From positions 503,086 through 567,085 of the forward strand of contig OY970169.1 in NCBI GenBank assembly GCA_963706585.1: a stretch of DNA of 64,000 nucleotides, in the 5' to 3' direction. Of the stretch, positions 5,307 through 39,329 are shown piece by piece; the first letter of the stretch is position 1, and every line of letters begins with the position of its first letter. The position numbers were made by a program, and so were the translations under genes. This stretch comes from an uncultured bacterium (GTDB lineage: Bacteria; Babelota; Babeliae; Babelales; Babelaceae). The notes under the pieces were generated by a model, which searched no databases, was not told the DNA's origin, and was given only the letters and a program-made list of their open reading frames with translations.

Positions 5307-6074
5307 TTAGTTGGCTTGTGCTACTTTGCATGTAGTTAAAATTTGATCGATATCAACATTTTCAAAAAGATCGCTGTTCATGGCTAGTTGTAGAGCAGTT
5401 TGACCAGCATTATTATAAATTTTCCAAGACAGGGTTGGCTCCTGGCATAGTTCCTGTAAAATGGCAATAACTTTATTAAGGGGCCTCTCTTTTAGATTAT
5501 ACAATAGGGCATGTAGTGCTGTATTGCCATAAGCACCTTTTGCATTAACGTCAGCCTTGTATTGTAATAAGAGCTTTACTATTGCTGGACTTCCATAGGC
5601 TGCGGCTAATGCAAGAGGTAATGTGCCAGCATTAAGGCCCGGCCCTTTTTGACCCTTAATATTCATATTGGGATCAATGCCGCCTTTTAATAGAGCTTCG
5701 AGCACTTTAAGCTTAGCTGCTTCTTTAAGCCCTGGATCTAGCAGAATATGCCAGAATTCTTGATAGGCTGCTTCTTTATGATTGTTAACATAGTTTTTGG
5801 TTAATGTATCAAGCAACCCTGGTCGGTTAGCAAGAGCATAAAACTGACTGTTTATCGCTGATACTTGAGCAAGTCGTTTAAGCATTTCAAGCATGCTGGG
5901 GGCCGGGATCACATAAGAAATGATATGATCTTTCAATTCGGGTGGCAAATCTTGTAGAAAACTTTCTGCAGCGACTTCGAGTTCAGGGCTCTTGGGGGTT
6001 TCCGGTTTTTGGGGTTGCATGCCAAACAAGCATCCAGAAATAGCAAAGGGAAATAAAATTCTAATTAGCATCAT
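5307..6074 (-). CDS. Secreted F-box-like / ankyrin-repeat protein, tandem paralog 6 (most divergent)
   Basis: Signal peptide, LPPELKDHIISYV...AYQEFW, and ANK-like repeats (GNTALHALL, LLQYKADVNAKG). Confidence 0.7.
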   Translation of the reverse strand: MMLIRILFPFAISGCLFGMQPQKPETPKSPELEVAAESFLQDLPPELKDHIISYVIPAPSMLEMLKRLAQVSAINSQFYALANRPGLLDTLTKNYVNNHKEAAYQEFWHILLDPGLKEAAKLKVLEALLKGGIDPNMNIKGQKGPGLNAGTLPLALAAAYGSPAIVKLLLQYKADVNAKGAYGNTALHALLYNLKERPLNKVIAILQELCQEPTLSWKIYNNAGQTALQLAMNSDLFENVDIDQILTTCKVAQAN

Positions 6075-11861: not shown

Positions 11862-11878
11862 TTATTAAGAGGTATCCT

Positions 11879-12946: not shown

Positions 12947-21352
<8,406 letters not shown>

Positions 21353-21406
21353 GAAAAAATATCTTAGAAGCATGAAAAGCAAAGAACAAGTATAAATAGT
21401 ATATTA

Positions 21407-21481: not shown

Positions 21482-21520
21482 AAAAATACTAGAGGAGTTT
21501 TACATGGCATATTAACAAAA

Positions 21521-21769: not shown

Positions 21770-21818
21770 CAGAGGTGATTGGCATTATTCTGAGCAAATA
21801 CTATATAGGTCAATATAC

Positions 21819-25862: not shown

Positions 25863-26885
25863 TTAGTCTACTGCACCGTGTTTACGAAGAAGCCTTATGA
25901 TATTTTCCAATGCTTGTTTAGCTGCTGTATCACCTATTCTGTCAGCATAATTGTATTTTCGAAGAGCTTCAGAGAGACATGTATCCCCAGTATCATCTCT
26001 TGCATTAACGTCAGCATCAGCTTCGATTAAACGTGCGACTATTTCCTCGTGGCCGTCTCGAGAAGCTATCATTAAAGGGGTGGTCCCATTAATATTCTGG
26101 GCGTGAACATAAGCTCCAAAGGTAAGTAATAGGTCTGCTACCGTATAAGCTCCTTTATATGCAGCCGCATGTAGGGGGGTTCTACCGGAATGAATAGCGG
26201 CATTAACATCCGCATTCATTTCGAGCAAAACCTTAGCTAACTCATAAAATCCAATTTTGGCTGCACAGAGTAATGGAGTTTCACCCCGGAAATCAGTTGA
26301 ATTAACATTGTCACCATGCTCAATCAACAAGCGGGCTATAGCAGGTATATTTTCAGCGGTTGCTGTTTGACTGAAATTTGTTATTCGTAGTAAAGGTTTG
26401 TATTCACTATTGATGCCAGGATCAGCCTTATAACTAAGCAGAAGCTTAACCATAGCTAAATTACCATGTTTAACAGCAATATGTAATGCAGAAGTTTTAA
26501 CAGACAGCTTATTAACGTTGACGCCACCATCAAGCAGAGCCTTTACTATCTTTTCATTATCATGCTCAACAGCATCGAAAAATTCTGCATAGGCGCTATC
26601 TGGATATAAACTTACAAATCTTCTGGCTGCTTCTTTGATCAAGACAGGAATCATAGCAACACTGGTAAAAGTGCTATCAACCAGAGCTAAATTGGCAATT
26701 TTGTTAAAGATCTCCTTCATGCTTGTAGCTTCTGGTATAAAGGAAAAGATATGCGCTCGTAGTTCTATGGGTAAATGGCTAAAAGGAGAATATTCAGTTG
26801 ACGTTGGGTCAGATAGTTGCTCCATGGAATTGGTAATTGCTGATAGTAAGCTGCTTAATAAGATGATGCCTATGATTTTTTTCAT
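25863..26885 (-). CDS. Secreted F-box-like protein with multiple ankyrin repeats
   Basis: Signal peptide MKKIIGIILLSSLLSA, LPIELRAHIFSFIPE, and at least 5 ANK repeats (TALHIAVKHGNLAMVKLLL; GETPLLCAAKIG; GRTPLHAAAYKG; GTTPLMIASRDGHEEIV). Confidence 0.8.
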   Translation of the reverse strand: MKKIIGIILLSSLLSAITNSMEQLSDPTSTEYSPFSHLPIELRAHIFSFIPEATSMKEIFNKIANLALVDSTFTSVAMIPVLIKEAARRFVSLYPDSAYAEFFDAVEHDNEKIVKALLDGGVNVNKLSVKTSALHIAVKHGNLAMVKLLLSYKADPGINSEYKPLLRITNFSQTATAENIPAIARLLIEHGDNVNSTDFRGETPLLCAAKIGFYELAKVLLEMNADVNAAIHSGRTPLHAAAYKGAYTVADLLLTFGAYVHAQNINGTTPLMIASRDGHEEIVARLIEADADVNARDDTGDTCLSEALRKYNYADRIGDTAAKQALENIIRLLRKHGAVD

Positions 26886-26905
26886 TGTTTGATCTCGAGG
26901 TAAAA

Positions 26906-27097
26906 TTAGTTTATTTTGGCATCTACAGCAAAATAGAGTACATGTTGTTTTAACTCATCGGGTAATTCTGCCCAATGAATGAATTGATTATTAGTTATAA
27001 TCAATTGCGTTTCTTCTTTTTGCCCGTATAGTTCATCGGGAAGCATAGAAGTAAGTGTGCTTGATGATATTACCATGAATAATAATTGGAATTTCAT
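26906..27097 (-). pseudogene. Truncated F-box-like gene remnant, 63 aa
   Basis: Signal-peptide-like N-terminus plus LPDELKQHVLYFAVD, then terminates. Confidence 0.4.
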
Positions 27098-27228
27098 GAA
27101 CTAATTCTTTCAATAGCTGTAAAAAGCGATTTGCTTTATTCTAATCAATTATTGGTTCTTATTTGTTAATAGCATTGTTACCTAGTTGAGTTGGAGGATA
27201 ACAGATTTGTATAAGTTAATGATCAGTA

Positions 27229-28809
27229 TTACAATGTCCACACGTGAATTTCTTTTGAATCATGAGAAATTATTTCATTAGAGATCTTTTGATCCCATGG
27301 GCGATTACGATCATTATCAAAAATGAGTAGATGAGCCTCATGAGGCTTACAGAGATCGATATATTTAGCTAATTGTTCGAGCCCTTGCCTTAGCGTATCT
27401 TCTCCTCGCTTAATCTTGAGCTCTAGAATATAGGTGTATTTTTTTTTCCATTCAATATATAAATCTACCCGTTTTGTGCCTATTGCATATTCTCTTCGTA
27501 TTGTGCCACCACCATTAATAACGCGCTGAAGGAAAGCCATAAGAAGAAGATGCGGAAAAGACTCTTTATAGACTGTCTTAGCGGTTTCAGCAGATGTATT
27601 ACTAATGAGTACATCTGCATTTTCTCTAAAAAATTGTGTAAAAGCTAAAAGAAGCATTTGCATGTTTAGCATGCCTGAATGATCTACGTACCAGGCAGCT
27701 TGATTGGGAATTAGTTCTTGCATGACATGTGTTAAAGCACGTGGAATAACTTGTTGATAGATAGGATTAGCTATTTCCCAGCTATTTTCTTTAATAAGTC
27801 CCAAATCACGTACATATTGAATATCATCTGGATTGAAGAAAAGTTGATCAGAGCCGCTGATAATAGCGTCAATAATGGTGCTTACACGAGGTTCGTAAAG
27901 TTTATCTATAAGAGCATTAATATGGGTATCCATTCGTAGGATGAGCTGATCTTTAGCTCGCTCGATAACCTCTTTTGTAATTGTTTCTTGTCGATTCAAG
28001 ATGTCTCTAAAGCAAGCTTGATAAGCAAGGGCATTAACTAACCACGGTTGCCCTTGGCTAAGCTCATAGGCGAGACATAGTGCACCTTCGGTAAAAGCCT
28101 GGCCTGTTTCTTGTGTATGTTGAAGATATAGTTCTGCGACTTGAGTCTGTGTGAAATCATTGAGTACTAAAGCATCAGCCACAATATTAAAGGGACTAAG
28201 CAAAACTCCTTTTTCTATTTCGTCAACTGATTGCAGTTTATAGTCTTGTAGGTTTCGCACTCCAATAAGGCATATTGACTGAGGAAACAGTTCGGGCCTT
28301 TTTGTGTATCCTGTCCGTAATTGCTTGAGAAGAGAAACAAGCGAATCTTCAACCAACCCGTCTATTTCATCAAAAAATAGCGCAAGCGGCTTTACATTAC
28401 TTTGCGCCCAAAGATGGAGAAATCGATAAAGAGCATTTTCAGAGACAGGTCTTTCTTTTAAAGCATCACGAAGATAGGTAAGTGCTTCATTTTGGTCACC
28501 TAATTGATCGGTAATTTCTGTTTCAAGTTGCGAGAGTAACCAATAGAGGGCTCGTTCTATGTCATTTTTCGCTGTATGAGCAGGTTCAGTAGTAAGGTAA
28601 AGAGCTATACAGGTGCTGCCTTTATTAACGTGCTTGACATATTCAAGAATTGCGGAAGTTTTCCCACTCTGCCGTGGTGCGTGGAGGATAAAATAATGCA
28701 TATCGTCGATTAAACTATCTAAATGCTTCCAGTTAAGCCGCTTAGGGATGAAGTAATGTAAGTTTGGCTTAATAGCACCAGCAATGCAAAATTTTTTCAT
28801 GCGCACCAA
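27229..28809 (-). CDS. Predicted AAA-ATPase with C-terminal PD-(D/E)XK nuclease-like domain
   Basis: Walker A APRQSGKTSAIL and Walker B ALFFDEIDGL. C-terminal KRVDLYIEWKKKYTYILELKIKRGE is typical of the AAA-ATPase_like/PDDEXK_9 architecture. Confidence 0.6.
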   Translation of the reverse strand: MVRMKKFCIAGAIKPNLHYFIPKRLNWKHLDSLIDDMHYFILHAPRQSGKTSAILEYVKHVNKGSTCIALYLTTEPAHTAKNDIERALYWLLSQLETEITDQLGDQNEALTYLRDALKERPVSENALYRFLHLWAQSNVKPLALFFDEIDGLVEDSLVSLLKQLRTGYTKRPELFPQSICLIGVRNLQDYKLQSVDEIEKGVLLSPFNIVADALVLNDFTQTQVAELYLQHTQETGQAFTEGALCLAYELSQGQPWLVNALAYQACFRDILNRQETITKEVIERAKDQLILRMDTHINALIDKLYEPRVSTIIDAIISGSDQLFFNPDDIQYVRDLGLIKENSWEIANPIYQQVIPRALTHVMQELIPNQAAWYVDHSGMLNMQMLLLAFTQFFRENADVLISNTSAETAKTVYKESFPHLLLMAFLQRVINGGGTIRREYAIGTKRVDLYIEWKKKYTYILELKIKRGEDTLRQGLEQLAKYIDLCKPHEAHLLIFDNDRNRPWDQKISNEIISHDSKEIHVWTL

Positions 28810-29103
28810 CGTTATGGTTAACTTTATCTCTATATTATTATAGCATAGGCAGCAATTAAAAGTAAGAGCTCAAGGTATATAGTAGCTTAAGAACTACATT
28901 CACTTTTTTATGGTAAAAAATATATTCACCTCCAGAATGAGCAGCTTTCCTTCTATTTGGGTTAATGTCCTCGGTTGAGATTCTCGGCGATTACCAAAGT
29001 GACTGTTACTCTAAATTTTTCTTGACAAAAATTTTATTTGATACAATATATACATATACTATATAATTATTTTCTAATATTACTTTAATTTGAGGATGAG
29101 ACG

Positions 29104-30072
29104 ATGAAAAAGAACTTAATGCTCGCCATATTGCTTCTATCGGGTTCTTTGCCAATTTTGTGCATGGATGCCCCTGATCGAATGGAGACTTGGGATGGAA
29201 TGGATATCGATGAAACCAGCTTAACCACCTGGCAAGCAGCTTTATCGAGCTTGCCTGAAGAACTTAAGCTTTATATCTTGTCATTTATAGCAAATGCTGA
29301 CAGCTTAGAGGCCGTATTTGCTGAATTAAAAAAGCTATCGCAGATAAATAGAGAATTTCACCGATTGGTTCATGATACAACATTCACTAGAGAAGTATTC
29401 TGGCACTTTATTTATGCTCATGAAAAACAAATAAGCCCTGACTTTTTTAAAATTATTGTGGGCTTAAAAGAACGATTGGCCACCAAGCAGGAAAATGCCT
29501 CACATGTGAGATATAAAGATGTGATGGGGCGGTTTCAGCATGAATTGTACAGCGCAATAGTTAAAGGGGATTATCGGACGGTTGTTAAATTAGTTGATGC
29601 ATGTATTAACGTTGAACTGCGTCAGAATCTCTTTAGAGCGATAATTCAGGGGGATTTAAATGCAGTTAAAGGCTATGTAGAAGATGGCGTTAATGTCAAT
29701 GCAAGGGTTGCTTCTCGAGATCTTCCTGCTGTACATGAGTTTTTAGTTGTAAAAAATAACCTCCTTAACGGGATTATTCAGTATACCCCATTGATGTTAG
29801 CTGTTGAAAGAGGGGATGTTAAACTGGTTGAGTTTCTTCTTGATCATGGCGTTAAAGTTGATGCAAAATGGGGAAGTTATACAGCTTTAACAATGGCGGA
29901 TAAGATCATGGGAGATATACGACGGAAAGAAGTGGGGTTATTGTTTACCTATCCCTCTACTTGGAGAAAGCTGAATACTTATGAAGAAATTATGAAGCTT
30001 TTACTTAGCAAAGGCGCTAGTGTTGAGCGCTTGCATAAAATGCAATTGAAGAGAATCAAAATCTGGGGATAG
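29104..30072 (+). CDS. Secreted F-box-like protein, paralog A
   Basis: Signal peptide MKKNLMLAILLLSGSLPILCMDAP, LPEELKLYILSFIANADSLEAV...LSQINREF, and ANK-like repeats. Confidence 0.7.
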   Translation: MKKNLMLAILLLSGSLPILCMDAPDRMETWDGMDIDETSLTTWQAALSSLPEELKLYILSFIANADSLEAVFAELKKLSQINREFHRLVHDTTFTREVFWHFIYAHEKQISPDFFKIIVGLKERLATKQENASHVRYKDVMGRFQHELYSAIVKGDYRTVVKLVDACINVELRQNLFRAIIQGDLNAVKGYVEDGVNVNARVASRDLPAVHEFLVVKNNLLNGIIQYTPLMLAVERGDVKLVEFLLDHGVKVDAKWGSYTALTMADKIMGDIRRKEVGLLFTYPSTWRKLNTYEEIMKLLLSKGASVERLHKMQLKRIKIWG

Positions 30073-30189
30073 TAATCTTTAAGTACAGTTGCTTACGCTC
30101 GTTAAAAGTTTTCTTGATAAAATTTTATTTAATATAAAATAAAAAATATAATTATTTAATAATATTATTTCAATTTAAGGAGTAAAAAG

Positions 30190-31062
30190 ATGAAAAAGAA
30201 TTTAATGCTTGTATTACTACTTCTATCGGGTTCATTGCCAATTTTGTGCATGGACGCACCCCAGGCAATGAAAGTAGATGAGTCAAGCTCAATGCAAGAG
30301 CAATCAGGGTTATCGGCCTTGCCTGCGGAACTTAAGCTTCATATCTTGTCATTTATAGCAGGTGCTGACAGCTTAACCAGACTGTTAAATAACTTAGCTA
30401 TACTATCTCTCGTTAATAGCGAGTTTAATCAGCTTGCTCATGATGAGCTGTTCAGAAGGCAGGTTATAAAGATCTATCTTAATTCTCGAGGCGAGAAGCA
30501 ACTCAGGCAAGACTTTTTTAAAGCAGCAATAGCTGGAAACTTGAGAGAAATTAAAGCTTTGGTTGAAGCCGGTATTAATATTAATATGCAAACAACTGAA
30601 GAGGATTTTTTAACGCCTGAGTTTTCATTTATTTTAGAATCCTCGTCCTCACCTAAAGAAATTGCAAAGCTTGCTCAGGAAGAGTTATATCATCGACTTA
30701 CTCATAGGGCCCTCGGCTACACAGCGCTTTGCTTGGCGGCCGAGAAAGGCAATAAAGAAATAGTTGCATTTTTGCTTGATAATGGAGCTGATCATGCACT
30801 CAGGACGCGAATCCCTTCAAGTGATGCTTATACTTTGGCTTGCTATAGACGCTCACATGTAGAAGAGTTCGAGGTGGGGTTCTTTTTTACCTGGGAATCG
30901 ACTAAGCAAAAAATAAGCGATTATAAAGAAATAGAAAAGCTGTTGGAACAGAAAGCCGTTGAAAGTGCTCTGTTAGAGGCAAGGGAAGCGGAAGAGCGTT
31001 TTAAACTTCAAGGCGCCAAAATGATGAATTTACTAAGACAGATGTACAGCACTAGAACATGA
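30190..31062 (+). CDS. Secreted F-box-like protein, paralog B
   Basis: Near-identical signal peptide and F-box-like motif to 29104-30072. The AT-rich 5' region is duplicated and the C-terminal half has diverged. Confidence 0.7.
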   Translation: MKKNLMLVLLLLSGSLPILCMDAPQAMKVDESSSMQEQSGLSALPAELKLHILSFIAGADSLTRLLNNLAILSLVNSEFNQLAHDELFRRQVIKIYLNSRGEKQLRQDFFKAAIAGNLREIKALVEAGININMQTTEEDFLTPEFSFILESSSSPKEIAKLAQEELYHRLTHRALGYTALCLAAEKGNKEIVAFLLDNGADHALRTRIPSSDAYTLACYRRSHVEEFEVGFFFTWESTKQKISDYKEIEKLLEQKAVESALLEAREAEERFKLQGAKMMNLLRQMYSTRT

Positions 31063-31303
31063 AATTATTCAAAGAACTCAGTCGAAGGGTTCAAGCATAT
31101 AAGCAGAAGCTAAGATCGTTGATTGGTCATGTTAATTAACTCAATCATTTGTTAATGTTATTTGCTTATTGTGTATAAGGTCAATTTTTAAAAAGCAAAG
31201 AGGTGAACAGGTTTAAAGAATGTTTTGGTTTTGAAAAATTAAATTTTTGCTATACTAACAATAAATATAGTTTTAATAACTTTTCAATGGTAGGAGTCAC
31301 TCC

Positions 31304-32698
31304 ATGGAACATTCTCTAGTAAGCTCTGGTATGCTCTCTTTTCTGGTCACAGCAGCAATAACTCTAGGCATTACAGCAATTTTTACTTTTATTTTTAAAG
31401 CATTATACAAGCGGTGCCCATCAAATAAGATATTAGCCGTTTACGGAAAAACAAGAGGAAACAGTTTTGTTAAATGTTATCATGGTGGCGGCAAGCTTAT
31501 CTGGCCATTGATTCAAGATTATGCGTTTATTGACCTTACACCTCGTACTATTCATATACCACTCAAAAGTGCTCTTTCTTTACAGAATATCCGGATTAAC
31601 GTTCCAAGTACATTTACCATTGCAGTAGATGTATCAGAAGATTCTATGAATAATGCTGCTATACGGTTGTTGGGGCTATCAGCCCAAGATATCGAGCTTA
31701 TGGCTGTTGAAATTATTACTGGACAGTTGCGCTTAACCGTAGCTTCACTTACCATTGAGCAGATTAACCAGGATAGAGAAAAATTTTTAGAAGCAATAAG
31801 GGCGCATATTGACCCTGAGCTTAAAAAAATAGGACTTTGCTTAATTAACGTTAATATTACTGATATTACCGATGAATCGCATTACATCGAAAGCATTGGT
31901 AAAAAAGCGGCCTCATTAGCAATAAATCAGGCTAAAATCGATGTTGCTGAAGCTGAAAAGCGCGGTGACATAGGTAAAGCTGAAGCTGAGAAAGAGCAAC
32001 GTATTTCAGTCTCAACGTTCAACACTCAAGCTGTCGAAGGCGAAAACAAGGCCTTGGCAGATATGGCTTATTACAATGCTAGTCTTGCAGAAAAAAGTGC
32101 TGAAGCACAAATGCGTGGTAAAGTTGCTGAACAAAATTCCTACGCACAGATTCAACACGCAAAAGCCTTAGCTGAAACGAAGCGTCTGGAAGCGGAAATA
32201 ATTATACCTAAAGAAATTGAAAAGAAAAAAATTACCATCGATGCTCAAGCATTAGCTGAGAAAATGAAGCAAGAAGCATTGGGTGAAGCTGAAGCAATAC
32301 TTACCATTAAGAAAGCAGAAGCTGAGGGTATTGCCCAAGTATTAACCGCAAAAGCCCTTGGCTACACTCGTTTAATTGAAGCTTGTGGCAACGATGCACA
32401 AGCAGCTGCTAATATGCTCATGATTGAAAAGCTAGAGCAAATAGCGTCCCTTCAAGCAGAAGCTATTAAAAATATCAAGATTGATAAAATTACTGTTTGG
32501 GATAGTGGCTCTGGCGAAAAAGGCAGCTCAACAGCAAGCTTTGTAAGTAGCATGATTAAGTCATTGCCGGCTTTGCATGAAGTTGCGGCTATGGCCGGCA
32601 TTAATTTGCCCGATTACTTAGGCCAGATTAAACCCGCGACTAAAGACCCAAAGCCAGAACCAAAAATCACCGAAAAAAGCAAAGAAATTGCTCTATGA
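31304..32698 (+). CDS. Flotillin-like SPFH/band-7 domain protein
   Basis: N-terminal TM, an SPFH core, then a long Ala/Glu/Lys-rich coiled coil (AEAEKRGDIGKAEAEKEQR...). Confidence 0.7.
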   Translation: MEHSLVSSGMLSFLVTAAITLGITAIFTFIFKALYKRCPSNKILAVYGKTRGNSFVKCYHGGGKLIWPLIQDYAFIDLTPRTIHIPLKSALSLQNIRINVPSTFTIAVDVSEDSMNNAAIRLLGLSAQDIELMAVEIITGQLRLTVASLTIEQINQDREKFLEAIRAHIDPELKKIGLCLINVNITDITDESHYIESIGKKAASLAINQAKIDVAEAEKRGDIGKAEAEKEQRISVSTFNTQAVEGENKALADMAYYNASLAEKSAEAQMRGKVAEQNSYAQIQHAKALAETKRLEAEIIIPKEIEKKKITIDAQALAEKMKQEALGEAEAILTIKKAEAEGIAQVLTAKALGYTRLIEACGNDAQAAANMLMIEKLEQIASLQAEAIKNIKIDKITVWDSGSGEKGSSTASFVSSMIKSLPALHEVAAMAGINLPDYLGQIKPATKDPKPEPKITEKSKEIAL

Positions 32699-32719
32699 TC
32701 GTAGTTAGCATAAGTGCAA

Positions 32720-34108
32720 CTATTTTTTTAGTGCTACAACTTTAAGAGAACAATATTCTCGTAGGCCATGTTTGCCATGTTCTCGACCTAAACCTGAATT
32801 TTTGTATCCGCCAAAGAGATCTTGGGCAATGTTATAATTTGCGCCATTAACGCTAATATTGCCCGTTTGCAGTTTGCTACAAATACGTTTTGCAAGTTCT
32901 TTATCTTGGGTATACAAGTAGCCTCCTAAGCCATAAGTGGTATCATTGGCCAATTTAATTGCCTCATCTTCTGATTCAAAGGGAACAACAGGCAATACGG
33001 GGCCAAAAACTTCCTCTTTCCATACCCGCATGTCAAAGGTAATATTCGTAAGAATGGTTGGCTCATAATAAGCACCAGATAGCGCTGACGGCCTTCTTCC
33101 TCCTGCTACAACCTTTGCTCCTTTTTCTAATGCATCCTTGACCTGGGCTTCCAAAGAAATAAGTTGTCGTTGGGCAACTAAAGGACCGATGTCGGTGTTT
33201 GGGTCTTCAGGATTACCAATTTTTTTGCTTGCTATTAAGGTTTTCAGTTGGTTAATTACTTCGTCAATGATGCTGCGATGAACAATAAGCCGCTTGAGCC
33301 CATCACAAGTCTGCCCGCTATTAAAATAACGATTTTCATACAAGGACTGTACGGTTTTTGTTAAGTCCGCATCTTTAAAAACAATACCGGGAGCTGATCC
33401 GCCAAGCTCTAAAATAGCGGGGATAAAGTTTTTTGCTGCCACCTGGTATAAATGTTTTCCTACACCCGTGCTTCCGGTAAAACACATAAGATCAATGTGG
33501 CTATTCATCAGATATTCACCGACGCTTGCTCCATCGCCATAGACTTCGTTAAAAACTCCATGAGGAAGATCTACTGAAGCAATTATCTCTTCAAGCAGTT
33601 TGCCAGTAAGCGGGCATTCTTCTGAATGCTTAAAAACGACGGTATTTCCTACTACCAAGTTTTGCATAACTGCCCATATAAAATTGACAAAAGGATAATT
33701 CCAGGGCGTGCTGATCCCTGCTACCCCTTTTGGTTCGGAAAAAAGATAATTAATTTCATCATTATTTTCAAAAAGTACTTCAGGTCCAAGCCATTGTTCG
33801 GCGAAATCAAGATAGCCTCTCATATACCGTAATCCTGAACCTATATCGATTTCGCGCCCGACAGAAATAGGCATCCCCATCTCACGAGCAGCTAATAAAC
33901 CAATTTCATTTTTTCTTTTTTCAAATTCTTTATAGAGCTTTTCAAGTATGGTAATTCTTCCTTTCAAACCGAGCGATGACCACTCTGGTAATGCAGATCG
34001 AGCATTGGCAATTTTACTATCAATTTCAGCATGAGTTGAAGGTGCTATCCTGCCGACTTCTTCATAGTTTTTACCAGGGTTTAATGAGATTAGTTGTTGC
34101 GATTTCAT
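32720..34108 (-). CDS. NAD(P)-dependent aldehyde dehydrogenase
   Basis: ALDH motifs ELGGSAP (ELGGKSP-type) and FFNSGQTC, catalytic Cys in QTCDGLKRLIV. Confidence 0.75.
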   Translation of the reverse strand: MKSQQLISLNPGKNYEEVGRIAPSTHAEIDSKIANARSALPEWSSLGLKGRITILEKLYKEFEKRKNEIGLLAAREMGMPISVGREIDIGSGLRYMRGYLDFAEQWLGPEVLFENNDEINYLFSEPKGVAGISTPWNYPFVNFIWAVMQNLVVGNTVVFKHSEECPLTGKLLEEIIASVDLPHGVFNEVYGDGASVGEYLMNSHIDLMCFTGSTGVGKHLYQVAAKNFIPAILELGGSAPGIVFKDADLTKTVQSLYENRYFNSGQTCDGLKRLIVHRSIIDEVINQLKTLIASKKIGNPEDPNTDIGPLVAQRQLISLEAQVKDALEKGAKVVAGGRRPSALSGAYYEPTILTNITFDMRVWKEEVFGPVLPVVPFESEDEAIKLANDTTYGLGGYLYTQDKELAKRICSKLQTGNISVNGANYNIAQDLFGGYKNSGLGREHGKHGLREYCSLKVVALKK

Positions 34109-34287
34109 CGTAATTTTCCTTCAGGCACTACTCTTTTGGTGGATGTTGCAAAATTGTAGACTGCTCTTTTTACTTATGAGTCATGATAGAACTTTTGTAT
34201 CTGCTAAAGATCTTAGTCTCTTTGAAATGAAATTTTCAATGATTATGAAGTTGATTGTTGGATTTAGTGTTTTGGTACCAGCATTAA

Positions 34288-34638
34288 TTATCGAAAGTTA
34301 AGTAATATTTTGATCATATATTCTAATTTTTGTAAGGTTACTTCACTTACTTTTCCTATACAGCTGCTAGCAATGCGATCTGTAGATAATGAACGTAATT
34401 GTTCAGCCATTAAATACGAAGGAATAATAAGACCACCTTCAGGTGGCAGAACTGGTATATGCAAGCGGATATTTCTATTTTTTGAAGTAAAAGGAACAAC
34501 AATGATAACGCCAGCAAGTCCATCGTTAAACGAATTTGTTGATAGTACTAAACAAGGACGTACGTTAGCTTGCTCTCTGCCAGTGGTAGGATTAAGGTTG
34601 AAAACCCAAACTTCACCTCGACGTGGCTTTAAAAGCAT
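34288..34638 (-). CDS. Type II toxin, MazF/PemK family endoribonuclease
   Basis: RGEVWVFNLNPTTGREQANVRPCLVLS...IIVVPFTS is canonical PemK/MazF. Its start overlaps the stop of the upstream antitoxin gene. Confidence 0.75.
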   Translation of the reverse strand: MLLKPRRGEVWVFNLNPTTGREQANVRPCLVLSTNSFNDGLAGVIIVVPFTSKNRNIRLHIPVLPPEGGLIIPSYLMAEQLRSLSTDRIASSCIGKVSEVTLQKLEYMIKILLNFR

Positions 34639-34880
34639 TAAAAATCCTCAAGTTTATCGTTAATACTTTCCCATTCGGCTCGCTCTGCGAGTTCTTCTTT
34701 CCAAGCCTCAGGATTATTCCTTAATGCTTCATAGTCCTTGTTTACTTCAGCAAGAAAAAACTCACGAAAGAGCTTTTCAAGCGCCTGCTCAATGAGATCT
34801 TGCTTCGATGAACCGGTTGCTGTTTCTAGCTCATTGAGCTTCTCATAGTTATCGTGTGATATTCTAATTACTTTAGACAT
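34638..34880 (-). CDS. Cognate antitoxin, 80 aa
   Basis: Small acidic protein immediately upstream of and overlapping mazF. Degraded copies lie at 35250-35340 and 38990-39230. Confidence 0.6.
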   Translation of the reverse strand: MSKVIRISHDNYEKLNELETATGSSKQDLIEQALEKLFREFFLAEVNKDYEALRNNPEAWKEELAERAEWESINDKLEDF

Positions 34881-35029
34881 GGTATCTCCTTGTTAATTAT
34901 ACATAAGTAAGTATACACAAATATGTTACAATTTTGCAACTTATTTGTAACATATTGGGATTTTGGCTATTTATGACTATTTTTCAGTAAAAATTATTTA
35001 TGATAAGCTACACGATTCTCAGGAGAGTT

Positions 35030-35340
35030 CATTCTGAAGACTTAAGAAACCAAGGGAAAATCTCTCAAGTTATGAATAATGATTCCTAGACTGCTTGTGG
35101 TGAGTCCAGTCAAGCGGAGGTACAATCTTGAGCCTGTTGCAGGACCCATAACCTGTTTACGTATGTCCGCAATTGGGTGAAAGCTTTTAGCCGTAGGTGA
35201 TGAGCGGAAGTAAGTCAAGCTGCTAGGAATTAGATTGACCAGAGATTAATAATCATCAAGCTTGTCATTAACACTTTCCCACCTGAGCTCACTCTGACAA
35301 TTCTTGTTTCCTAGCTAAAGAAAAAACTCCAGCTTAGGCG
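35030..35340. repeat. Approximately 200-bp dispersed repeat plus a 3' remnant of the antitoxin gene
   Basis: 35198-35250 closely matches 38944-38995. 35255-35335 resembles 34645-34720 (the antitoxin C-terminus). 35038-35075 resembles 40262-40292. Confidence 0.55.
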
Positions 35341-35357
35341 GCTGGAGTTTGCCGTTT

Positions 35358-36101
35358 TTATTTGTTGGCTGCTTCATTAATTAAGCGACGTATTTCCATG
35401 GCATTTGGCCCACGAGCCCAGGCTTGAATAGTGCCACCTCGAGTATCTCCACCTGCGTCTAAAAGTTTTTTAACGATAGCTTGATCGCCTCTTTCTGCCG
35501 CCACAATCAGAGGAGTTATATTTTTACTTTTAGTTGCAGCGTTCACATCAGCACCATTTTTAAGAAGATAATCTATAATATCTGGATGACGTCCAAATAC
35601 GGCTAACATGAGAGGGGTTCTATTATCCTGGGTACCCTGATCGATCTTGGCCCCGTTTTCAACAAGAAGTTTTACGATTTCGTCATTCCCTGCTAAAGCT
35701 GCATTCGCCAGTGGCGTCACTTGATCAGTATCTCTTTCATTTGCTAATGAAGGCTTTAAGTTGATAAATGCTTTGATGGCTACATTGTTTCCTGTCTTGA
35801 TAGCAGTAAAAAACTCGTGTTTGGCATCTGGATGAGTTTTCTCATAAGCCATTATTATCGCTTTCTTTGTTAGAGGATCACTAATGATGGCACTGAAGGT
35901 TTTATCTGTTAATTGCAAATGAGCAAGTTGCTTAGCAACATCGCTTATGTTACTAGCTTGCGCAGCATATTCTACAATCATTGTTTTGAGTTCTGCTGGT
36001 AAGGCTGCCAAGGTTCCAGCTTCAATATCTGGATGCGGCTGCTCCATAGATTTGACAGCAAATGGCAGTGCTATGAACAAAAAAAGTGATAAATACTGCA
36101 T
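35358..36101 (-). CDS. Secreted F-box-like ankyrin-repeat protein
   Basis: Signal peptide MQYLSLFLFIALPFAVKS, LPAELKTMIVEYAA, and ANK repeats (TPLANAALAGNDEIVKLLVENGA; RTPLMLAVFGRHPDII; TPLIVAAERGDQAIVKKLL). Confidence 0.75.
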   Translation of the reverse strand: MQYLSLFLFIALPFAVKSMEQPHPDIEAGTLAALPAELKTMIVEYAAQASNISDVAKQLAHLQLTDKTFSAIISDPLTKKAIIMAYEKTHPDAKHEFFTAIKTGNNVAIKAFINLKPSLANERDTDQVTPLANAALAGNDEIVKLLVENGAKIDQGTQDNRTPLMLAVFGRHPDIIDYLLKNGADVNAATKSKNITPLIVAAERGDQAIVKKLLDAGGDTRGGTIQAWARGPNAMEIRRLINEAANK

Positions 36102-36179
36102 ATTTTCTCCTTTTCAAAAGACCTTTAATAAATTTAATTTCAATTATTAAATAATTTTACCAGATTAAACACATGCAAG

Positions 36180-36480
36180 TCAATGATTAAATGCTGAAGA
36201 ACTTGAGCATTCCTGAAGCTGGAACGTATTGGCTATAAACATTATGATTGGTCTTGGAGGCTTAGACCATGCTAGAGCTAATTCACTTAATTCTGCATGG
36301 CACAATCTTACTTTTAGAAGATTTGCCGATTATATGCAAACTGCTCAGTTTCAAAATGCTTTGGCTAAGCTTATAAAGCTAGCTCAAAGTAAACTATCTG
36401 AAGATGTAAGTCATGAACAATTGCAAAAGAACATAGGGATACTGTTTATAAGACGCCGCATTCTCCCAAGGTGCAAGTAG
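36180..36480 (+). pseudogene. Truncated DUF488-family gene copy
   Basis: About 80% nucleotide identity to 39513-39720, the central part of the DUF488 gene at 39330-39926. It lacks the N- and C-terminal parts. Confidence 0.6.
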
Positions 36481-36790
36481 TACTTTTATTCAAGATGAAA
36501 CGCAATTGGATTATTCAGAACATCGAGCTTTAGAGGGGGTTGGCCCTATCGGTAATCATGTGGGACGAGGTATTATGGTACACAGTACATTAGCTGTTGC
36601 TTATAATAACCTTGAACCGCTAATATTGGGCTTCGCGAATCAACGTGCATGGATTAGATAAAATATTTCATTCTACCAGCTAGTTTGAAATAGAGTGAGA
36701 ATACGGTAAAATAAAGCAGTATTGTTTATGTTGAAAAAATTGAGAAAAAAATAGTCCAACCAAAAAGGTGCACTATTAATAAGGATATTT

Positions 36791-38545
36791 ATGCATGTAA
36801 AGATGGTTGCAGCCTTAATAATTGCTATGTATCTAGGAAAATTATTGCCTATGGAATTGCCAGATACAATTACCGTGGTGAGCAGGGATGCACAAGAGTT
36901 CGTAATTAATAAAGATATTTTTTCGCTTTCTAACACGTTTCTGTTCCTGCTGGCTGGTGGTGCCCAAGAAACACTTTTCCATTTTCGTGAATTTAATTCG
37001 GATGAATTTGAGGAAGTGTTAGAATTAATGGCTACGATTGCTCATCTTCGGCAAAATGGTTCTAAGCGTTATGTTAAATTTCAAAAGGCAAAAGAAAAAC
37101 TTTGGTTTTTGTCAACAAAATCGCTTGAAGAACTTGGCGGATTAATGGTGATTGCTAATTTCCTGGATATCGATTCGCTGCAGCAGCTTATAGCTTACTT
37201 CATTGCCTGGCAATTAGATCCAAGGCTCGGTGCAAAAGATATCAATGATGTTTTTGAAAAATTAAACATTTCCGAAAGTGAAAATCCTAAAAAATATATT
37301 ACAAAAGAACTCGAGTTAAAACAGGTTAGTAAAAATCCCTTCCAAAAATCTGATAGATTATTATGCTGTAATCACGCATCGAGTACTAAAAGACAAGAAA
37401 TTAGAGCAACCATACTTGGTGAAGGTGATTTTTCATGGCGCAAGTTGCCCGTGGAAGCGCAACTGCAAATGCTAGAAACGTATCTACTGTCTCAAACTAA
37501 CCCAACGATGGCTGCCAAGGAGCTTTTAGAGCGTATCAGAACTGTAACTTTTACCGATTTACCAATTGAAGTTAAAGAGCAAATATTTCTTTATTTAATA
37601 AAGCGTGATGAAACTATATTTCAGCAATTTAAGCAACTTATTCTTTTAAGTCAAATCAACCGCCAAACTTGCACGTTACTTCACACACATTGCCAGGCGC
37701 TTAAACTAGATATTCCTCAACAAGTAGTTAAATCGAACAACCTGCAAGCTGAGATAACATTTTTAGAGCTGTTCAACTCGCCTTACATAAATATCGATGA
37801 AGTAAAAGCTTTCGTAACATCGGGAATCGATATTAACAAAAAAACTACTTTTGGTTATACAGCTTTGATGCTAGCATCTAGGTGGGACTATAACATTTTT
37901 AAAGAAATAGTAAAGCTTCTTCTTGCCAACGGTGCTGATGTTAATGCGCTAAGCAATGATGGTTATACAGCTTTGATGCTAGCATCTCGAGAGGGTCGCA
38001 CTGAGATAGTGAAGCTACTTTTGGATAAGGGCGCTGAGGTTGATGCTAAAGATGGCCTAACAGCTTTGATGCTAGCATCTCAATCGGGTCGTACTGAGAT
38101 AGTGAAGCTACTTTTGGATAAGGGTGCCAAGGTTAATGTTAATGCTAAAGATGGCCTAACAGTTTTGATGCATGCATCTCAATCGAGTCATACTGAGATA
38201 GTAAGGCTACTCTTGGATAAGGATGCTGAGGTTAATGCTAGAGATACTAGGGAGCAAACTGCTTTGATGCATGCATCAAACTATGGGCACCTAGAGATAG
38301 TAAAGCTTCTTCTTGCCAGCAGTGCTGATGTTAATGCTCGAAGAGATGATGGTTATACAGCTTTGATGCTAGCATCTCAAGAAGGTCGCACTGAGATAGT
38401 GAAGCTACTTTTGGATAGGGGTGCTAAGGTTAATGCTAAAGATATTTTTGGGCAAACTGCTTTGTCTTTGACATATAATAGCCAAGGCCGGGAAGAGATT
38501 ATAGCGTTGCTCCTTGATAGTGGTGCTACACTTCGTTCTGGATAA
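36791..38545 (+). CDS. Large ankyrin-repeat protein (at least 9 ANK) with an internal F-box-like motif, 584 aa
   Basis: Near-identical ANK units (GYTALMLASREGRTEIVKLLLDKGAEVDAKD) are tandemly repeated. LPIEVKEQIFLYL is the F-box-like motif. N-terminal hydrophobic segment. Confidence 0.8.
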   Translation: MHVKMVAALIIAMYLGKLLPMELPDTITVVSRDAQEFVINKDIFSLSNTFLFLLAGGAQETLFHFREFNSDEFEEVLELMATIAHLRQNGSKRYVKFQKAKEKLWFLSTKSLEELGGLMVIANFLDIDSLQQLIAYFIAWQLDPRLGAKDINDVFEKLNISESENPKKYITKELELKQVSKNPFQKSDRLLCCNHASSTKRQEIRATILGEGDFSWRKLPVEAQLQMLETYLLSQTNPTMAAKELLERIRTVTFTDLPIEVKEQIFLYLIKRDETIFQQFKQLILLSQINRQTCTLLHTHCQALKLDIPQQVVKSNNLQAEITFLELFNSPYINIDEVKAFVTSGIDINKKTTFGYTALMLASRWDYNIFKEIVKLLLANGADVNALSNDGYTALMLASREGRTEIVKLLLDKGAEVDAKDGLTALMLASQSGRTEIVKLLLDKGAKVNVNAKDGLTVLMHASQSSHTEIVRLLLDKDAEVNARDTREQTALMHASNYGHLEIVKLLLASSADVNARRDDGYTALMLASQEGRTEIVKLLLDRGAKVNAKDIFGQTALSLTYNSQGREEIIALLLDSGATLRSG

Positions 38546-38939
38546 GGGGTGCTGATGTTAGGGTGATAAGCAATGATGGCGATACAGCATTGATAATTGC
38601 TTCTCTGAAAGGCACAAAGAGGTAGAAAAGCTACTTGATAAATATGGATACTATTAACGAGAAACTGGTTGTGCAATAGAAAAGCGTCAGCTCAAGTCAA
38701 CACATGCACTATTAGCATTATTGGGTATTTTAGGCATTATTGCTACTAAGCTTCTTGAAATAAAATTTCTTGCTCGCGAATATTCAAATGGCTTAGCGAA
38801 AAATCATATTCCATCAATCCTATTAAAAATTATTGCTTCTCGCTTTGAATTATCTCAAGAACACATAACTCTTAGCCAATTCTGGCATAGGGTTGCAGGA
38901 TTGGCAGGCTTTAATGACGGTGATCCCGGCTGGCAAACA

Positions 38940-39235
38940 TTAAGGGATGAGCGGAAGCAAGTTAAGCTACCGGGAATTAGATTGGTGAGATTAATAATCA
39001 TCAAGCTTATCATTAATACTTTCCCACCGAGCTCGCTCTGCCAATTCTTGTTTCCAAGCCTGCGAATTATTACGTAATGCTTTATAATCACGATTCACGA
39101 AATAGATTTTCAAATGCTTGATCAATAAGAACTTGCTTTGATAAACCAGTAGCAGTTTGTAACTCATTCAGCTTATGATAGAATATGATTGGATACTCTA
39201 ATTACTTTATACATAGTGTCTCCTTATTAATTAAT
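38940..39235 (-). pseudogene. Degraded copy of the antitoxin gene plus flanking repeat
   Basis: Collinear similarity to 34638-34930 (the antitoxin CDS and its promoter region), interrupted by stops. Confidence 0.5.
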
Positions 39236-39329
39236 AATAAGTATACACCAAAATTTTATGATTTAAGAGGACTGCATATTGCCTTTAAAGCTTTTGCTTA
39301 ATTAGGCTTATGGGCATAGAAAGAGACTC

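Follow-up and report, generated by a model that had tools for sequence, protein, structure and literature searches.

Why would a bacterium carry, within the 64,000-nt stretch of DNA analysed here (the window), a set of genes that join an N-terminal leader, an F-box-like segment and ankyrin (ANK) repeats, and do these genes belong together? The bacterium, with a genome of about 1.42 Mb, is placed in the Babeliales (Dependentiae/TM6) by its GatA, the best matches of which come from Babeliales and Vermiphilaceae MAGs (59-65% identity), all else being at 54% or less. Members of this group live as obligate intracellular parasites in protists. The window does contain a dispersed set of paralogs that combine N-terminal leaders, F-box-like segments and ANK. 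As judged from their sequences, the 12 genes in the window form one lineage-specific, greatly expanded paralog family.

Members of the family

An HMM of the F-box-like segment, run against all stop-to-stop frames of the window, returned exactly 12 members, of which 11 are full genes and one is a remnant of 63 aa, with the rest at noise. The sequence-only reading of this DNA had counted at least 12 dispersed members, which is borne out; the six ORFs that it named, all outside the tandem array, are present with the coordinates and strands given below. The predicted architecture consists of a Sec-type leader, a short acidic linker, a divergent F-box, two linker helices and a variable ANK array (2-8 repeats).

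Six of the 12 members form a tandem array on the minus strand (1272-6074). Member 1 (1272..2012) has 246 aa from its SD-supported start (SD-like GGAGA upstream of the second Met; the mechanical ORF extends to 2024) and matches Pfam F-box-like with 29.0 bits. Members 2 (2073..2813; 246 aa) and 3 (2894..3628; 244 aa) were recognized by the family HMM, as was member 4 (3688..4443), which has 251 aa from an SD-supported start (AAGGAG upstream of Met16; mechanical ORF to 4488). The structure of member 5 (4515..5282; 255 aa; Pfam F-box-like 31.2 bits) was modelled, and its homologues have a precomputed assignment to Pfam PF12937. Member 6 (5307..6074; 255 aa) matches Pfam Ank (E=2.6e-10), Pfam F-box-like (17.1 bits) and the family HMM (96 bits).

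The non-array members are 25863, 26906, 29104, 30190, 35358 and 36791, named by their first coordinate. 25863 (25863..26885, minus strand; 340 aa) has the leader MKKIIGIILLSSLLSAITNS followed by ME, an F-box-like segment with linker and five ANK repeats (Pfam Ank E=6.5e-38 over five stretches; family HMM 90 bits), in line with the claim of at least five. Its product is encoded on a 1,417,897-bp (~1.42-Mb) contig, which is that of the window. The remnant 26906 (26906..27097, minus strand; 63 aa) lies 20 nt upstream of 25863. It retains a leader and two LPDEL motifs, and its F-box is cut after about 20 residues. It had rightly been called truncated, the family HMM (E=2.7e-4) covering model positions 2-20 only. 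29104 (29104..30072, plus strand; 322 aa) has a leader ending in ..PILC/MD, an F-box-like segment (Pfam F-box-like 21.0 bits) and a degenerate ANK region (Ank E=3e-10), and scores 96 bits with the family HMM. Its tandem duplicate is 30190 (30190..31062, plus strand; 290 aa; Pfam F-box-like 25.2 bits against a gathering score of 24.3). The two share 81-87% nt identity over the upstream region, the leader and the F-box start (repeats D6, D8 and D11), and the C-terminal part has diverged. 35358 (35358..36101, minus strand; 247 aa) has a leader ending in ..AVKS/ME, an F-box-like segment and 3-4 ANK repeats (Pfam Ank_2 E=1.4e-31; family HMM 88 bits).

An ANK-only ORF is present as claimed (63258..63968, minus strand; 236 aa; Pfam Ank_2 E=1.5e-14). 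It has neither a leader nor a Pfam F-box match, and carries a C-terminal hydrophobic segment that is tail-anchor-like (...WFDLATYFAGGMGITALCYVLYHKVW..).

Leaders and C-terminal ends

Leaders were judged by heuristics only (a hydrophobic core, then small residues at -3 and -1). Signal peptides had been attributed to all but one of the members. A heuristic leader is indeed found in 11 of the 12, and that of 36791 is weaker, with Pro at -1. Most leaders have a basic start, which 35358 lacks. Shine-Dalgarno-like motifs occur upstream of most first ATGs and of no internal Met codon. Thus, the leader is translated. A hydrophobic leader was found in 130 of 151 relatives, and M[EDQN] directly follows it in 109 of these. 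Of these 109, 95 have A, S, C or G at -1, and 88 have Glu at +2. In an alignment of 144 sequences, the column of the Met after the leader is at least 90% conserved. The leader end is a nearly invariant [A/S/C/G]-Met-Glu, which we predict to be a signal-peptidase-I site.

Some relatives have a CaaX-like end, with Cys at -4 in 11 of 151 (1.4 expected; P=2e-7). The ends are CCMQ, CCLQ, CMLQ, CLLS, CVLC, CVLQ and CTMQ, and at least seven of these relatives are encoded on the contig of the window. The motif is found in none of the 12 window members. Such ends may represent a host-cytosol signature.

The F-box-like module

Domain HMMs agree with the earlier assignment of the family. ANK matches are strong in 25863 and in 36791 (six scored stretches) and occur in all the others; Pfam F-box-like matches 10 of the 11 window segments at E<=1 (best E=1.6e-8), and Pfam F-box matches eight. 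At least three full-length window proteins score above the F-box-like gathering score, the match being below it in 29104, 5307 and 36791. No F-box match was obtained for 25863 and 35358 in the full-length Pfam search. The motif reads LPxEL...LSLVNxxF, with L, P and E of LPxE invariant across the 11 window segments. The conserved Trp of the canonical F-box is replaced by Phe, and eight residues are inserted between helices 1 and 2. This insertion, which is visible when the family profile is aligned with F-boxes from PDB, could alter the Skp1 interface.

When a profile of 75 family sequences was compared with PDB (177,635 sequences), the F-box of Skp2 was the top match (E=1e-4), with further matches to Fbw7, FBXL5, FBXO4, FBXL2, Legionella AnkB (5k35_A), FBXW8, FBXO31 and FBXO42. 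Pfam domains detected among 144 relatives are ANK (113), F-box-like (68 at E<=0.01), F-box (23) and PRANC (15, weak). Mean column identity in the alignment of the 144 sequences is 6%, and P and E of LPxE are at least 90% conserved. In the AF2 model of tandem-array member 5 (4515; pLDDT 85, pTM 0.81), LPxE is followed by three short helices (40-52, 56-69 and 71-77), then by linker helices and ANK. Fold searches with the full model returned ANK proteins only and no F-box match, so that the F-box fold is without support from structure comparison.

Gene 36791 and its repeats

36791 (36791..38545, plus strand; 584 aa) is an intact ORF of 1755 nt and represents a distinct subfamily. It codes for the weak leader, a Skp1/Elongin-C-like domain, a half F-box, the F-box-like segment and an ANK array. 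Over the N-terminal 335 aa, four paralogs from this genome share 84-88% identity. Their ANK arrays vary in sequence and length. The variation in protein length (533-584 aa) is one between paralogs of a single genome, not between strains. One further paralog of 360 aa, also from this genome, is devoid of the array.

The N-terminal domain (36860..37300; about aa 24-170) is a putative BTB-fold domain according to PDB profile and hhalign comparisons. Its ANFLDIDSL resembles ANYLDIKGL of Skp1. The best PDB profile matches are Elongin C (1hv2_A, E=0.009) and Skp1a (6v88_A, E=0.021). By hhalign, it aligns with human SKP1 over 114 columns (P=0.0034) and with Elongin C (P=1.4e-4, probability 53%), probabilities for the two ranging from 10 to 53%. 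For paralog P0012, Pfam ranks Skp1_POZ first, with E=0.0061 and 17.1 bits, which falls short of the gathering score (21.9). An AF2 model (pLDDT 39.6) is too poor for use. Weak but consistent sequence similarity thus suggests a Skp1/Elongin-C-like domain in this subfamily. The half F-box motif (WRKLPVEAQLQMLETYL; 37436-37495) precedes the F-box-like segment and linker (37547..37747; aa 253-319), which match the family profile with E=9.8e-16 and Pfam weakly (F-box-like E=0.19, PRANC E=0.048). A literature search found no description of a Skp1-F-box fusion, and we know of none like that in 36791.

The ANK array (37853..38542) consists of seven units (U1-U7), as delineated by TRF and pairwise identities, and is flanked by a cap-like unit on its upstream side and a decayed unit past the stop codon. 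TRF reports a period of 99 nt, 5.4 copies and 72% matches. Close copies are limited to U2, U3, U4 and U6 (76-94% nt identity), the remaining pairs having 50-74%. U2 and U6 are 94% identical, with 25 of 27 codons identical at identical residues, and a 151-nt block (37903-38053 versus 38293-38443) matches at 91%. At least nine near-identical, almost perfect 33-aa units from a very recent amplification had been claimed. The unit that was quoted, GYTALMLASREGRTEIVKLLLDKGAEVDAKD, does occur (aa 391-421), but with a length of 31 aa. There are seven units in the ORF and only four close copies, and the claim was overstated: given a DNA divergence of 6-24% among the four, the event was not a very recent one. 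Intragenic duplication or gene conversion links U2, U3, U4 and U6. The decayed unit (38546..38700, plus strand), identified by three-frame translation, gives GADVRVISNDGDTALIIAS...HKEVEKLLDKYGY only if two frame changes are bridged, and contains the eighth copy of repeat D2 (38548-38605, 81%).

Expansion in the genome and order

At E<=1e-3, the family profile collects 247 clusters (50% identity). Twenty hits were looked up, 10 among the top-ranked and 10 spread down the list. Of these, 13 are on the contig of the window, the others being from a Babeliales MAG and metagenomes. Thus, the genome has at least tens of diverged lineages of the family, and relatives exist in other Babeliales. Between close paralogs, identity is 0.84 in the N-module and 0.60 in the ANK part, and the corresponding values for 29104/30190 are 0.58 and 0.31. 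The family has probably diversified by tandem and segmental duplication, truncation, and intragenic duplication or conversion of ANK units, while the N-terminal export-and-docking module was kept.

Proposed function and alternatives

We consider it probable that the data as a whole reflect an expanded, secreted F-box/ANK family which hijacks the host SCF and diversifies by modules. The proteins would be exported by Sec, leave the cell via a type II secretion system or vesicles, and then enter the host cytosol. There, the F-box would dock on host Skp1-Cul1, and the ANK array would pick host proteins for ubiquitination. In 36791, the Skp1/Elongin-C-like domain could provide the adaptor in cis.

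It is rather unlikely that the proteins are secreted ANK binders which sequester host proteins without SCF ubiquitination, the F-box being a non-functional relic or a cap/dimerisation module. This would fit the many members that score below the Pfam F-box gathering score or go undetected (68 of 144 are detected at E<=0.01), the 8-aa insertion, the Phe in place of the conserved Trp and the fold searches without an F-box match. However, nothing in the whole family is better conserved than LPxE and the hydrophobic pattern, with P and E kept at 90% or more over 144 very diverged sequences, which argues for purifying selection on the F-box surface. Moreover, the profile picks genuine F-boxes out of the 177,635 PDB sequences, and conservation is higher in the N-module than in the ANK part. 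A function in the periplasm or envelope without contact with the host cytosol, such as self-protection as by the Bdellovibrio ankyrin immunity protein, is highly improbable. A Sec leader alone predicts export only to the periplasm, and the window shows no dedicated system for effector translocation, but the partners of F-box, Skp1-like and CaaX-like motifs exist only in the eukaryotic cytosol. Tens of paralogs with hypervariable ANK arrays fit host-target diversification, and the ANK proteins with signal peptides of Babela and Chromulinavorax were interpreted as secreted (PMC4378268, PMC6561590).

We find it barely credible that the repeated ANK units seen in 36791, and possibly also the paralog count, are artefacts of repeat collapse or expansion in a long-read assembly. 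Dozens of frame changes disrupt nusG, rplKAJL, rpoB, rpoC and pnp in a 12.5-kb patch of the same contig (~10.2-22.7 kb); thus, assembly quality is not uniform. P0007 is on record from NCBI and ENA only and not from the independent Logan assembly, but the 4515 protein from the tandem array is exactly reproduced in the Logan assembly of run ERR11523662. Since the units all differ from one another, by about 6% of bases in the closest pair, an artefact in the repeats is unlikely. Also, the ORF is unbroken over its 1755 nt, and similar arrays, with 5-6 scored units, occur in four paralogs.

Comparison with known systems

By analogy, the family would most likely act as do Legionella AnkB and the ANK/F-box proteins of poxviruses and Orientia. 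AnkB from Legionella pneumophila (Lpg2144/LegAU13; PDB 5k35) is also bacterial, has an N-terminal F-box followed by ANK, and is among the PDB matches of the family profile, even though sequence similarity is marginal (E=0.66). It has a CaaX-like end, as do some paralogs in this genome, and hijack of the host SCF would be common to both. In contrast to the window family, with its Sec-type leader, 8-aa F-box insertion, 2-8 ANK and tens of paralogs, AnkB is a single gene, has no signal peptide and is delivered by Dot/Icm type IV secretion. The ANK/PRANC proteins of poxviruses and Orientia tsutsugamushi likewise combine ANK with an F-box-like domain in multigene families. They recruit substrates in a Skp1-dependent manner, which may also apply here. 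Their domain order is reversed, with the F-box-like domain C-terminal, and they lack a Sec leader, the route of Orientia Anks being type I secretion and poxvirus proteins being synthesized inside the host. The alignment of the N-terminal domain of the 36791 subfamily with eukaryotic Skp1 starts at strand 1 and extends past the ANYLDI helix. Unlike Skp1 and Elongin C, the domain has an F-box-like segment and ANK fused to it in cis, with a leader in front.

Amoebophilus asiaticus and Protochlamydia/Neochlamydia have convergently built up eukaryote-like ubiquitin-system and repeat domains as protist endosymbionts; 94 ANK proteins are attributed to Amoebophilus (as cited in PMC4378268). Their F-box/U-box and ANK repertoires belong to other phyla, architectures and secretion systems, and no sequence relationship to the window family is detectable beyond generic domains. 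In the phylum itself, ANK proteins with signal peptides are already known. Babela massiliensis has 126 ANK proteins, 79 of them with signal peptides (PMC4378268), Chromulinavorax destructans has 98, 78% with signal peptides (PMC6561590), and type II secretion components are encoded in TM6 genomes (PMC4776705). Both species are from the same order and show the same pattern as the window family. Babela is, however, credited with one F-box protein only, whereas here every member has an F-box-like module between leader and ANK. The putative new details are the [A/S/C/G]-Met-Glu leader end, the CaaX-like enrichment among paralogs and the Skp1/Elongin-C-like domain of 36791, none of which is mentioned in PMC4378268 or PMC6561590.

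Gene fragments beside family members

An antitoxin 3' fragment (35194..35315) is duplicated junk beside family genes, with copies at 34634-34736 and 38941-39089 (repeats D4, D5, D7 and D10; 74-95%). A DUF488 fragment (36243..36394, plus strand; Pfam E=0.0038) is 88% identical to part of an intact DUF488 gene (39330-39926; E=2e-28; repeat D3).

Family Members and Their Layout

The six family ORFs named in the sequence-only reading were all recovered by ORF calling at the coordinates claimed for them, as was an ANK-only ORF at 63258-63968 (minus strand). Genes and their proteins are named here by their start coordinate in the window. Three of the six are on the minus strand (25863-26885, 340 aa; 26906-27097, 63 aa; 35358-36101, 247 aa), and three are on the plus strand (29104-30072, 322 aa; 30190-31062, 290 aa; 36791-38545, 584 aa). 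Six further members are arranged head-to-tail on the minus strand in a tandem array (1272-6074). For two of these (1272-2024 and 3688-4488), the mechanically called start is probably too far upstream; SD-like motifs favour 2012 (246 aa) and 4443 (251 aa) as the true starts.

At least 12 members had been claimed for the 64 kb. An HMM built from the common N-terminal segment (family alignment A2) was searched against all 1813 stop-to-stop frames of the window, and it recovers exactly 12 loci. The best non-member among these frames, a 29-aa frame antisense to a member, reaches only E = 0.013, so that the count of 12 is exact. According to the alignment, the members share five parts: a hydrophobic leader (about 20 aa) is followed by an acidic linker, which is short, by the conserved block LPxEL(K)xHIxS[FY]xAxAxSxxxxLKELAxLSLVNxxFxxIAxD, by two helices that end in AYxEF[WF], and by ANK repeats. 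The latter (33-residue repeated helix-loop-helix units; CL0465: PF00023, PF12796 and related) are matched by Pfam in every full-length member, and in each of these the leader comes first, then the F-box, then ANK. The original observation is partly confirmed, and its interpretation finds partial support: the family exists, and what it is can be said with reasonable clarity. For the phylum it is an ordinary family, with a few unusual details.

The start motif LPxEL is doubled in the remnant 26906-27097 and in 36791 (37436-37495), where half an F-box precedes a complete or truncated one. Several relatives likewise have a doubled LPxEL, with two matched stretches in the profile search.

A Divergent F-Box-Like Module

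When the full-length proteins are compared to Pfam, the F-box-like domain (PF12937) is matched above its gathering score of 24.3 bits in three members (1272, 29.0; 4515, 31.2; 30190, 25.2) and below it in three others (29104, 21.0; 5307, 17.1; 36791, 12.0); 25863 and 35358 have no F-box-like match as full-length proteins. With isolated segments at E<=1, F-box-like is found in 10 of 11 and F-box (PF00646) in 8 of 11 (best E=1.6e-8). In the LPxE start, L, P and E are invariant among the window members, and P and E are at least 90% conserved in 144 relatives. The hydrophobic positions that characterise F-box helices 1-3 (L/I pattern, V-x-K/R-x-W) are kept as well: the stretch LSLVN[KR]xF aligns with VSGVCKRWY from Skp2, except that Phe replaces Trp and 8 aa are inserted.

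Because the Pfam result is marginal, a deeper profile test was made. A 66-position family profile was searched against 1.84 billion representative proteins. It matched 247 clusters with E<=1e-3, and for 46 of them E was <=1e-10. The F-box segments of 75 profile-hit sequences (alignment A9) were then searched against all PDB sequences. F-box proteins occupy ranks 1-9, with Skp2 constructs at 1e-4 to 0.015 (the best at 1e-4 and 3.5e-4), Fbw7 at 0.058 and FBXL5 at 0.17. FBXO4, FBXL2, Legionella AnkB (5k35_A), FBXW8, FBXO31 and FBXO42 are found lower in the list. The alignments begin at the LP motif and reach the end of helix 3, with a clean 8-residue insertion past helix 1. In an AF2 model of the 4515 protein (pLDDT 85, pTM 0.81), LPxE is followed by three short helices, a pair of linker helices and then the ANK solenoid. 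Fold searches with this whole model returned ANK structures only and are uninformative on the F-box. We conclude that the family segment is most likely a genuine but divergent F-box. The family HMM recognises this module where Pfam mostly fails.

Leader and Met-Glu Junction

In most members, an SD-like motif (GGAG, AAGGAG or AGGA) precedes the first ATG, which indicates that the leader is translated. In a heuristic scan, a hydrophobic leader was found in 130 of 151 family sequences, and it is directly followed by Met plus E/D/Q/N in 109 of these 130. Within this set of 109, residue -1 is A/S/C/G in 95, residue +2 is Glu in 88, and residue -3 is aliphatic or small (L/I/T/S/A/V) in 97. The post-leader Met is one of only three columns with at least 90% conservation in a 144-sequence alignment that has a mean column identity of 6%. 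On the heuristic call, the family has the features of a Sec type I signal (basic n-region, hydrophobic h-region, small residues at -3/-1). The leader of 36791 (..KLLP/ME) is atypical, having Pro at -1. The junction pattern fits a predicted signal-peptidase-I site, cleavage at which would give a mature protein that begins with Met-Glu.

Two other explanations were considered and rejected. An alternative start at the post-leader Met lacks the SD-like motif that precedes most of the first ATGs, and a lipoprotein signal does not agree with the residues ahead of Cys, which misfit the lipobox.

The same leader-Met junction occurs in four unrelated small, secreted-looking ORFs of the window, a sample too small to generalise: NA/MQ (8710-9006, plus strand), SC/MM (44029-44601, minus strand, hydrophobic C-terminus), NG/MN (46953-47348, plus strand) and FA/MD (57072-57572, plus strand, hydrophobic C-terminus). 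Three other leader-bearing ORFs (48213, 52357 and 57600) have ordinary AxA sites without Met. One possibility is that the junction serves as a signal by which host-directed proteins are sorted or matured; another is that it is a start-codon scar from a leader cassette that was fused upstream.

ANK Array of 36791 and Modular Evolution

For 36791, at least nine near-identical ANK units had been reported. The intragenic duplication is real, but both the number and the degree have to be revised. The array (37853-38542) has seven units (U1 to U7). DNA identities of 76-94% are found among U2, U3, U4 and U6, whereas every other pair of units is at 50-74%. TRF reports a period of 99 nt with 5.4 copies and 72% matches (alternative period 198 nt), and the array is the sole sizeable tandem repeat of the window. 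U2 and U6 are 94% identical, third codon positions included, and share 25 of 27 codons; this points to duplication or gene conversion and not to mere convergence on the ANK consensus. A 151-nt block of the array recurs 390 nt away with 91% identity. Past the stop codon there is a decayed ANK unit (38546-38700), readable only via two frame changes, so that either the 3' end of the gene has been shortened or the assembly is wrong there.

Close paralogs of 36791 are encoded in the same genome, four of 533, 550, 578 and 582 aa and one of 360 aa without ANK. The first 335 residues of this subfamily are 84-88% identical, while the ANK arrays vary in sequence and unit number, which makes ANK the fast-evolving, length-variable module. 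When the N-terminal module is compared with the ANK part, the identities are 0.84 and 0.60 in the tandem array, and 0.58 and 0.31 in the 29104/30190 pair. Metagenomes and IMG/VR, scanned with an alignment of the FSFIPEATSMKEIF subfamily, gave pattern matches only, of which none was confirmed.

A Probable Skp1/Elongin-C-Like Domain in 36791

Unlike in the other members, about 230 residues separate the leader from the F-box in 36791. This region contains a candidate domain (36860-37300, aa 24-170 of the protein). When a profile of residues 21-175 from four paralogs was compared to 177,635 PDB sequences, yeast Elongin C (1hv2_A, E=0.009) and Skp1a (6v88_A, E=0.021) came first, followed by about 15 more Elongin C entries at E about 1. 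The Skp1a alignment includes LggLlvianfLDIdsL versus LfeLilaANYLDIkpL. With hhalign, 114 columns aligned with human SKP1, beginning at strand 1 and reaching the helix that follows ANYLDI (P=0.0034); for Elongin C, the result was P=1.4e-4 and a probability of 53%. In the divergent paralog P0012, the best Pfam match is Skp1_POZ (PF03931; E=0.0061, 17.1 bits), which is below the gathering score of 21.9. The 36791 protein itself has no Pfam match to the Skp1 families (PF03931 Skp1_POZ, PF01466 Skp1). An AF2 model of its N-terminus, computed from a shallow six-sequence alignment, is unusable (pLDDT 39.6). A homology search with the alignment of the domain had 0 matches, not even to the proteins of the query, and is thus uninformative. 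Three independent weak signals for one fold are the reason that we consider this N-terminal domain to be probably Skp1/Elongin-C-like.

The Skp1-like domain and the F-box could form an intramolecular adaptor-receptor unit that binds the host cullin directly, or they could sequester host F-box proteins. It is tempting to speculate further and to combine this with the junction. The 36791 subfamily (taken here as five ANK-bearing members and a shorter one without ANK array, all from one genome) would then be a single-chain Skp1+F-box+ANK protein with its own cullin adaptor, which could do without host Skp1 either by docking directly on host Cul1 or by trapping F-box proteins of the host. In the same reading, the nearly invariant [A/S/C/G]-Met-Glu would have the dedicated role of sorting or maturing Babeliales proteins bound for the host, and it would be no historical accident. 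This combination is tentative, and we hold it to be rather doubtful. A literature search found no mention of a Skp1-like domain combined with F-box and ANK in symbionts. If true, such a fusion would be an unusual pathogen route into cullin ligases.

Family Size and CaaX-Like Ends

The window proteins lie on a single contig of 1,417,897 bp. Of 20 profile hits that were checked, ten from the top ranks and ten spread further down the list, 13 are on this same contig, including nine of the top-ranked ten. The remaining checked hits belong to a Babeliales MAG (MEX0940283.1, 'ankyrin repeat domain-containing protein') or to metagenome assemblies. As the representatives are clustered at 50% identity, the genome holds at least tens of diverged family lineages, and genes outnumber lineages. 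GTDB representative genomes, scanned with the family alignment A3, had no relative; the source genome is thus not among the representatives scanned. GatA from the window is 59-65% identical to sequences from 'Candidatus Babeliales', 'Dependentiae ... Vermiphilaceae' and three other MAGs, and at most 54% identical to those from the remaining bacteria.

Eukaryotic prenyltransferases act on CaaX boxes, and Legionella AnkB has such a box as a hallmark. A Cys at position -4 from the C-terminus is present in 11 of 151 family sequences, with 1.4 expected (P=2e-7). The corresponding ends are CCMQ, CCLQ, CMLQ, CLLS, CVLC, CVLQ, CTMQ, CNIM, CTIV and CTCK. At least seven CaaX-like paralogs are encoded on the same contig: P0017, P0020, P0022, P0031, P0036, P0050 and P0062 (CCMQ, CCLQ, CMLQ, CLLS, CVLC, CVLQ and CTMQ). 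None of the 12 window members has a CaaX end. The enrichment is a hint that family members may act in the host cytosol, and it is the strongest in-silico sign of this.

Genomic Neighborhood and Assembly Quality

Between holA (24713-25678) and the housekeeping genes that start at 40.2 kb, family genes are interleaved with other genes, among them those for flotillin and an aldehyde dehydrogenase. One protein encoded between family members (27229-28809, minus strand, 526 aa) combines an AAA_35 ATPase with a C-terminal NucS_C / PD-(D/E)XK nuclease-like domain; a link to defence or to a mobile element is possible. A MazEF module is located at 34288-34880. Three 3'-end copies or fragments of the MazE-like antitoxin gene (34634-34736, 35194-35315, 38941-39243) flank 35358 and 36791; within these stretches, the repeated antitoxin 3' end itself is at 34634-34736, 35242-35315 and 38987-39089. 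A DUF488 fragment (36243-36394) is 88% identical to positions 39566-39717 of the intact gene (39330-39926). The 35358 gene has an antitoxin fragment on one side and the DUF488 fragment on the other, and there is a second antitoxin/DUF488 junction without insert. This duplicated debris marks the region as a hotspot of segmental duplication and decay. Growth of the family by local duplication fits this hotspot; it also fits the tandem array of six genes, the pair 29104/30190 and the remnant 26906, which abuts 25863.

On the plus strand, at about 10.2-22.7 kb, the essential genes nusG, rplK, rplA, rplJ, rplL, rpoB and rpoC, as well as pnp in its 5' half, are each broken up into many reading frames, with about one frame change per 200-300 nt in the patch (10200-22700) and roughly 50 in all from nusG to pnp. 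The rpoB and rpoC genes are colinear with RpoB and RpoC from E. coli, yet they need at least 20 frame changes. Homopolymer errors were rejected as the cause, since the inspected junctions are outside homopolymers. Outside the patch the genes are unbroken, ORFs of 526 to 753 aa among them. Most likely, the patch is a locally unpolished stretch of the assembly and not biology. It leaves the family genes untouched, yet it makes the repeat number of 36791 provisional.

The atpG gene (ATP synthase gamma subunit; 6152-6994, minus strand) is alone between the F-box/ANK array and an NYN-domain gene, without atp neighbours. GC skew is unusually positive across 8-24 kb.

Proposed Function and Competing Explanations

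The Dependentiae, a widespread and scarcely cultured group, live as parasites of protists. They have many ANK proteins, to which, to our knowledge, no mechanism has been assigned so far. For the ANK expansion of this lineage, which is a single family on a conserved 'leader + F-box' module, we can offer a concrete mechanism: the proteins may be SCF substrate receptors that are delivered Sec-dependently. They would be exported by Sec with cleavage of the leader, would be released through a type II system or vesicles, would bind host Skp1-Cul1 with the F-box, and would choose host substrates with the ANK repeats. T2SS components are encoded by TM6 genomes (PMC4776705). In Chromulinavorax, budding of vesicles has been seen, and a signal peptide is present in 78% of the ANK proteins (PMC6561590).

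This four-step reading is the best-supported one. What has been observed for it is the domain homology, the paralog expansion, the CaaX enrichment and a conservation pattern in which F-box surface and leader junction are kept and ANK is variable. The F-box might instead be a relic, with binding by ANK being purely stoichiometric. The marginal Pfam scores would agree with a relic, the kept F-box surface would not, and we judge this explanation unlikely. [quoted passage not shown] An assembly artefact, in the ANK units of 36791 and perhaps in the number of paralogs, is slightly less probable still. We retain SCF substrate receptors as the preferred reading.

Relation to Known Systems

By analogy, the family may work like Legionella AnkB and the ANK/F-box proteins from poxviruses and Orientia. 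AnkB, too, has an N-terminal F-box followed by ANK repeats. However, AnkB is delivered by the type IV system (Dot/Icm) without a Sec signal peptide, whereas family members have a hydrophobic leader and SD-supported starts. In addition, the C-terminal CaaX farnesylation motif of AnkB is absent from the 12 window members. There are no T4SS genes within the 64-kb window. In the ANK-PRANC proteins from poxviruses and Orientia, the F-box-like domain is C-terminal, whereas it is N-terminal to ANK here; the PRANC HMM has only weak matches, in 15 of 144 relatives. Because of the missing Dot/Icm signal, the Sec leader, the domain order opposite to that of PRANC proteins and the marginal sequence similarity, the family is outside both groups.

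Expansions of ANK proteins with signal peptides have already been described for Babela and Chromulinavorax (PMC4378268, PMC6561590), and an expansion of this type is the natural home of the family. An F-box in TM6 genomes is mentioned only in passing (PMC4776705), and one F-box protein was reported for Babela. In the literature compared, the F-box module that underlies the ANK expansion of the lineage, the [ASCG]-Met-Glu junction and the Skp1-like subfamily appear to be undescribed. Natural variants for experiments are available: CaaX-bearing, Skp1-fused and tail-anchored.

The ANK-only protein 63258-63968 (minus strand), which is not a member of the family, has no leader. It has a C-terminal hydrophobic segment and a short basic tail, resembling a tail anchor. 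The proteins 44029, 47448 and 57072 have C-terminal hydrophobic segments, too.
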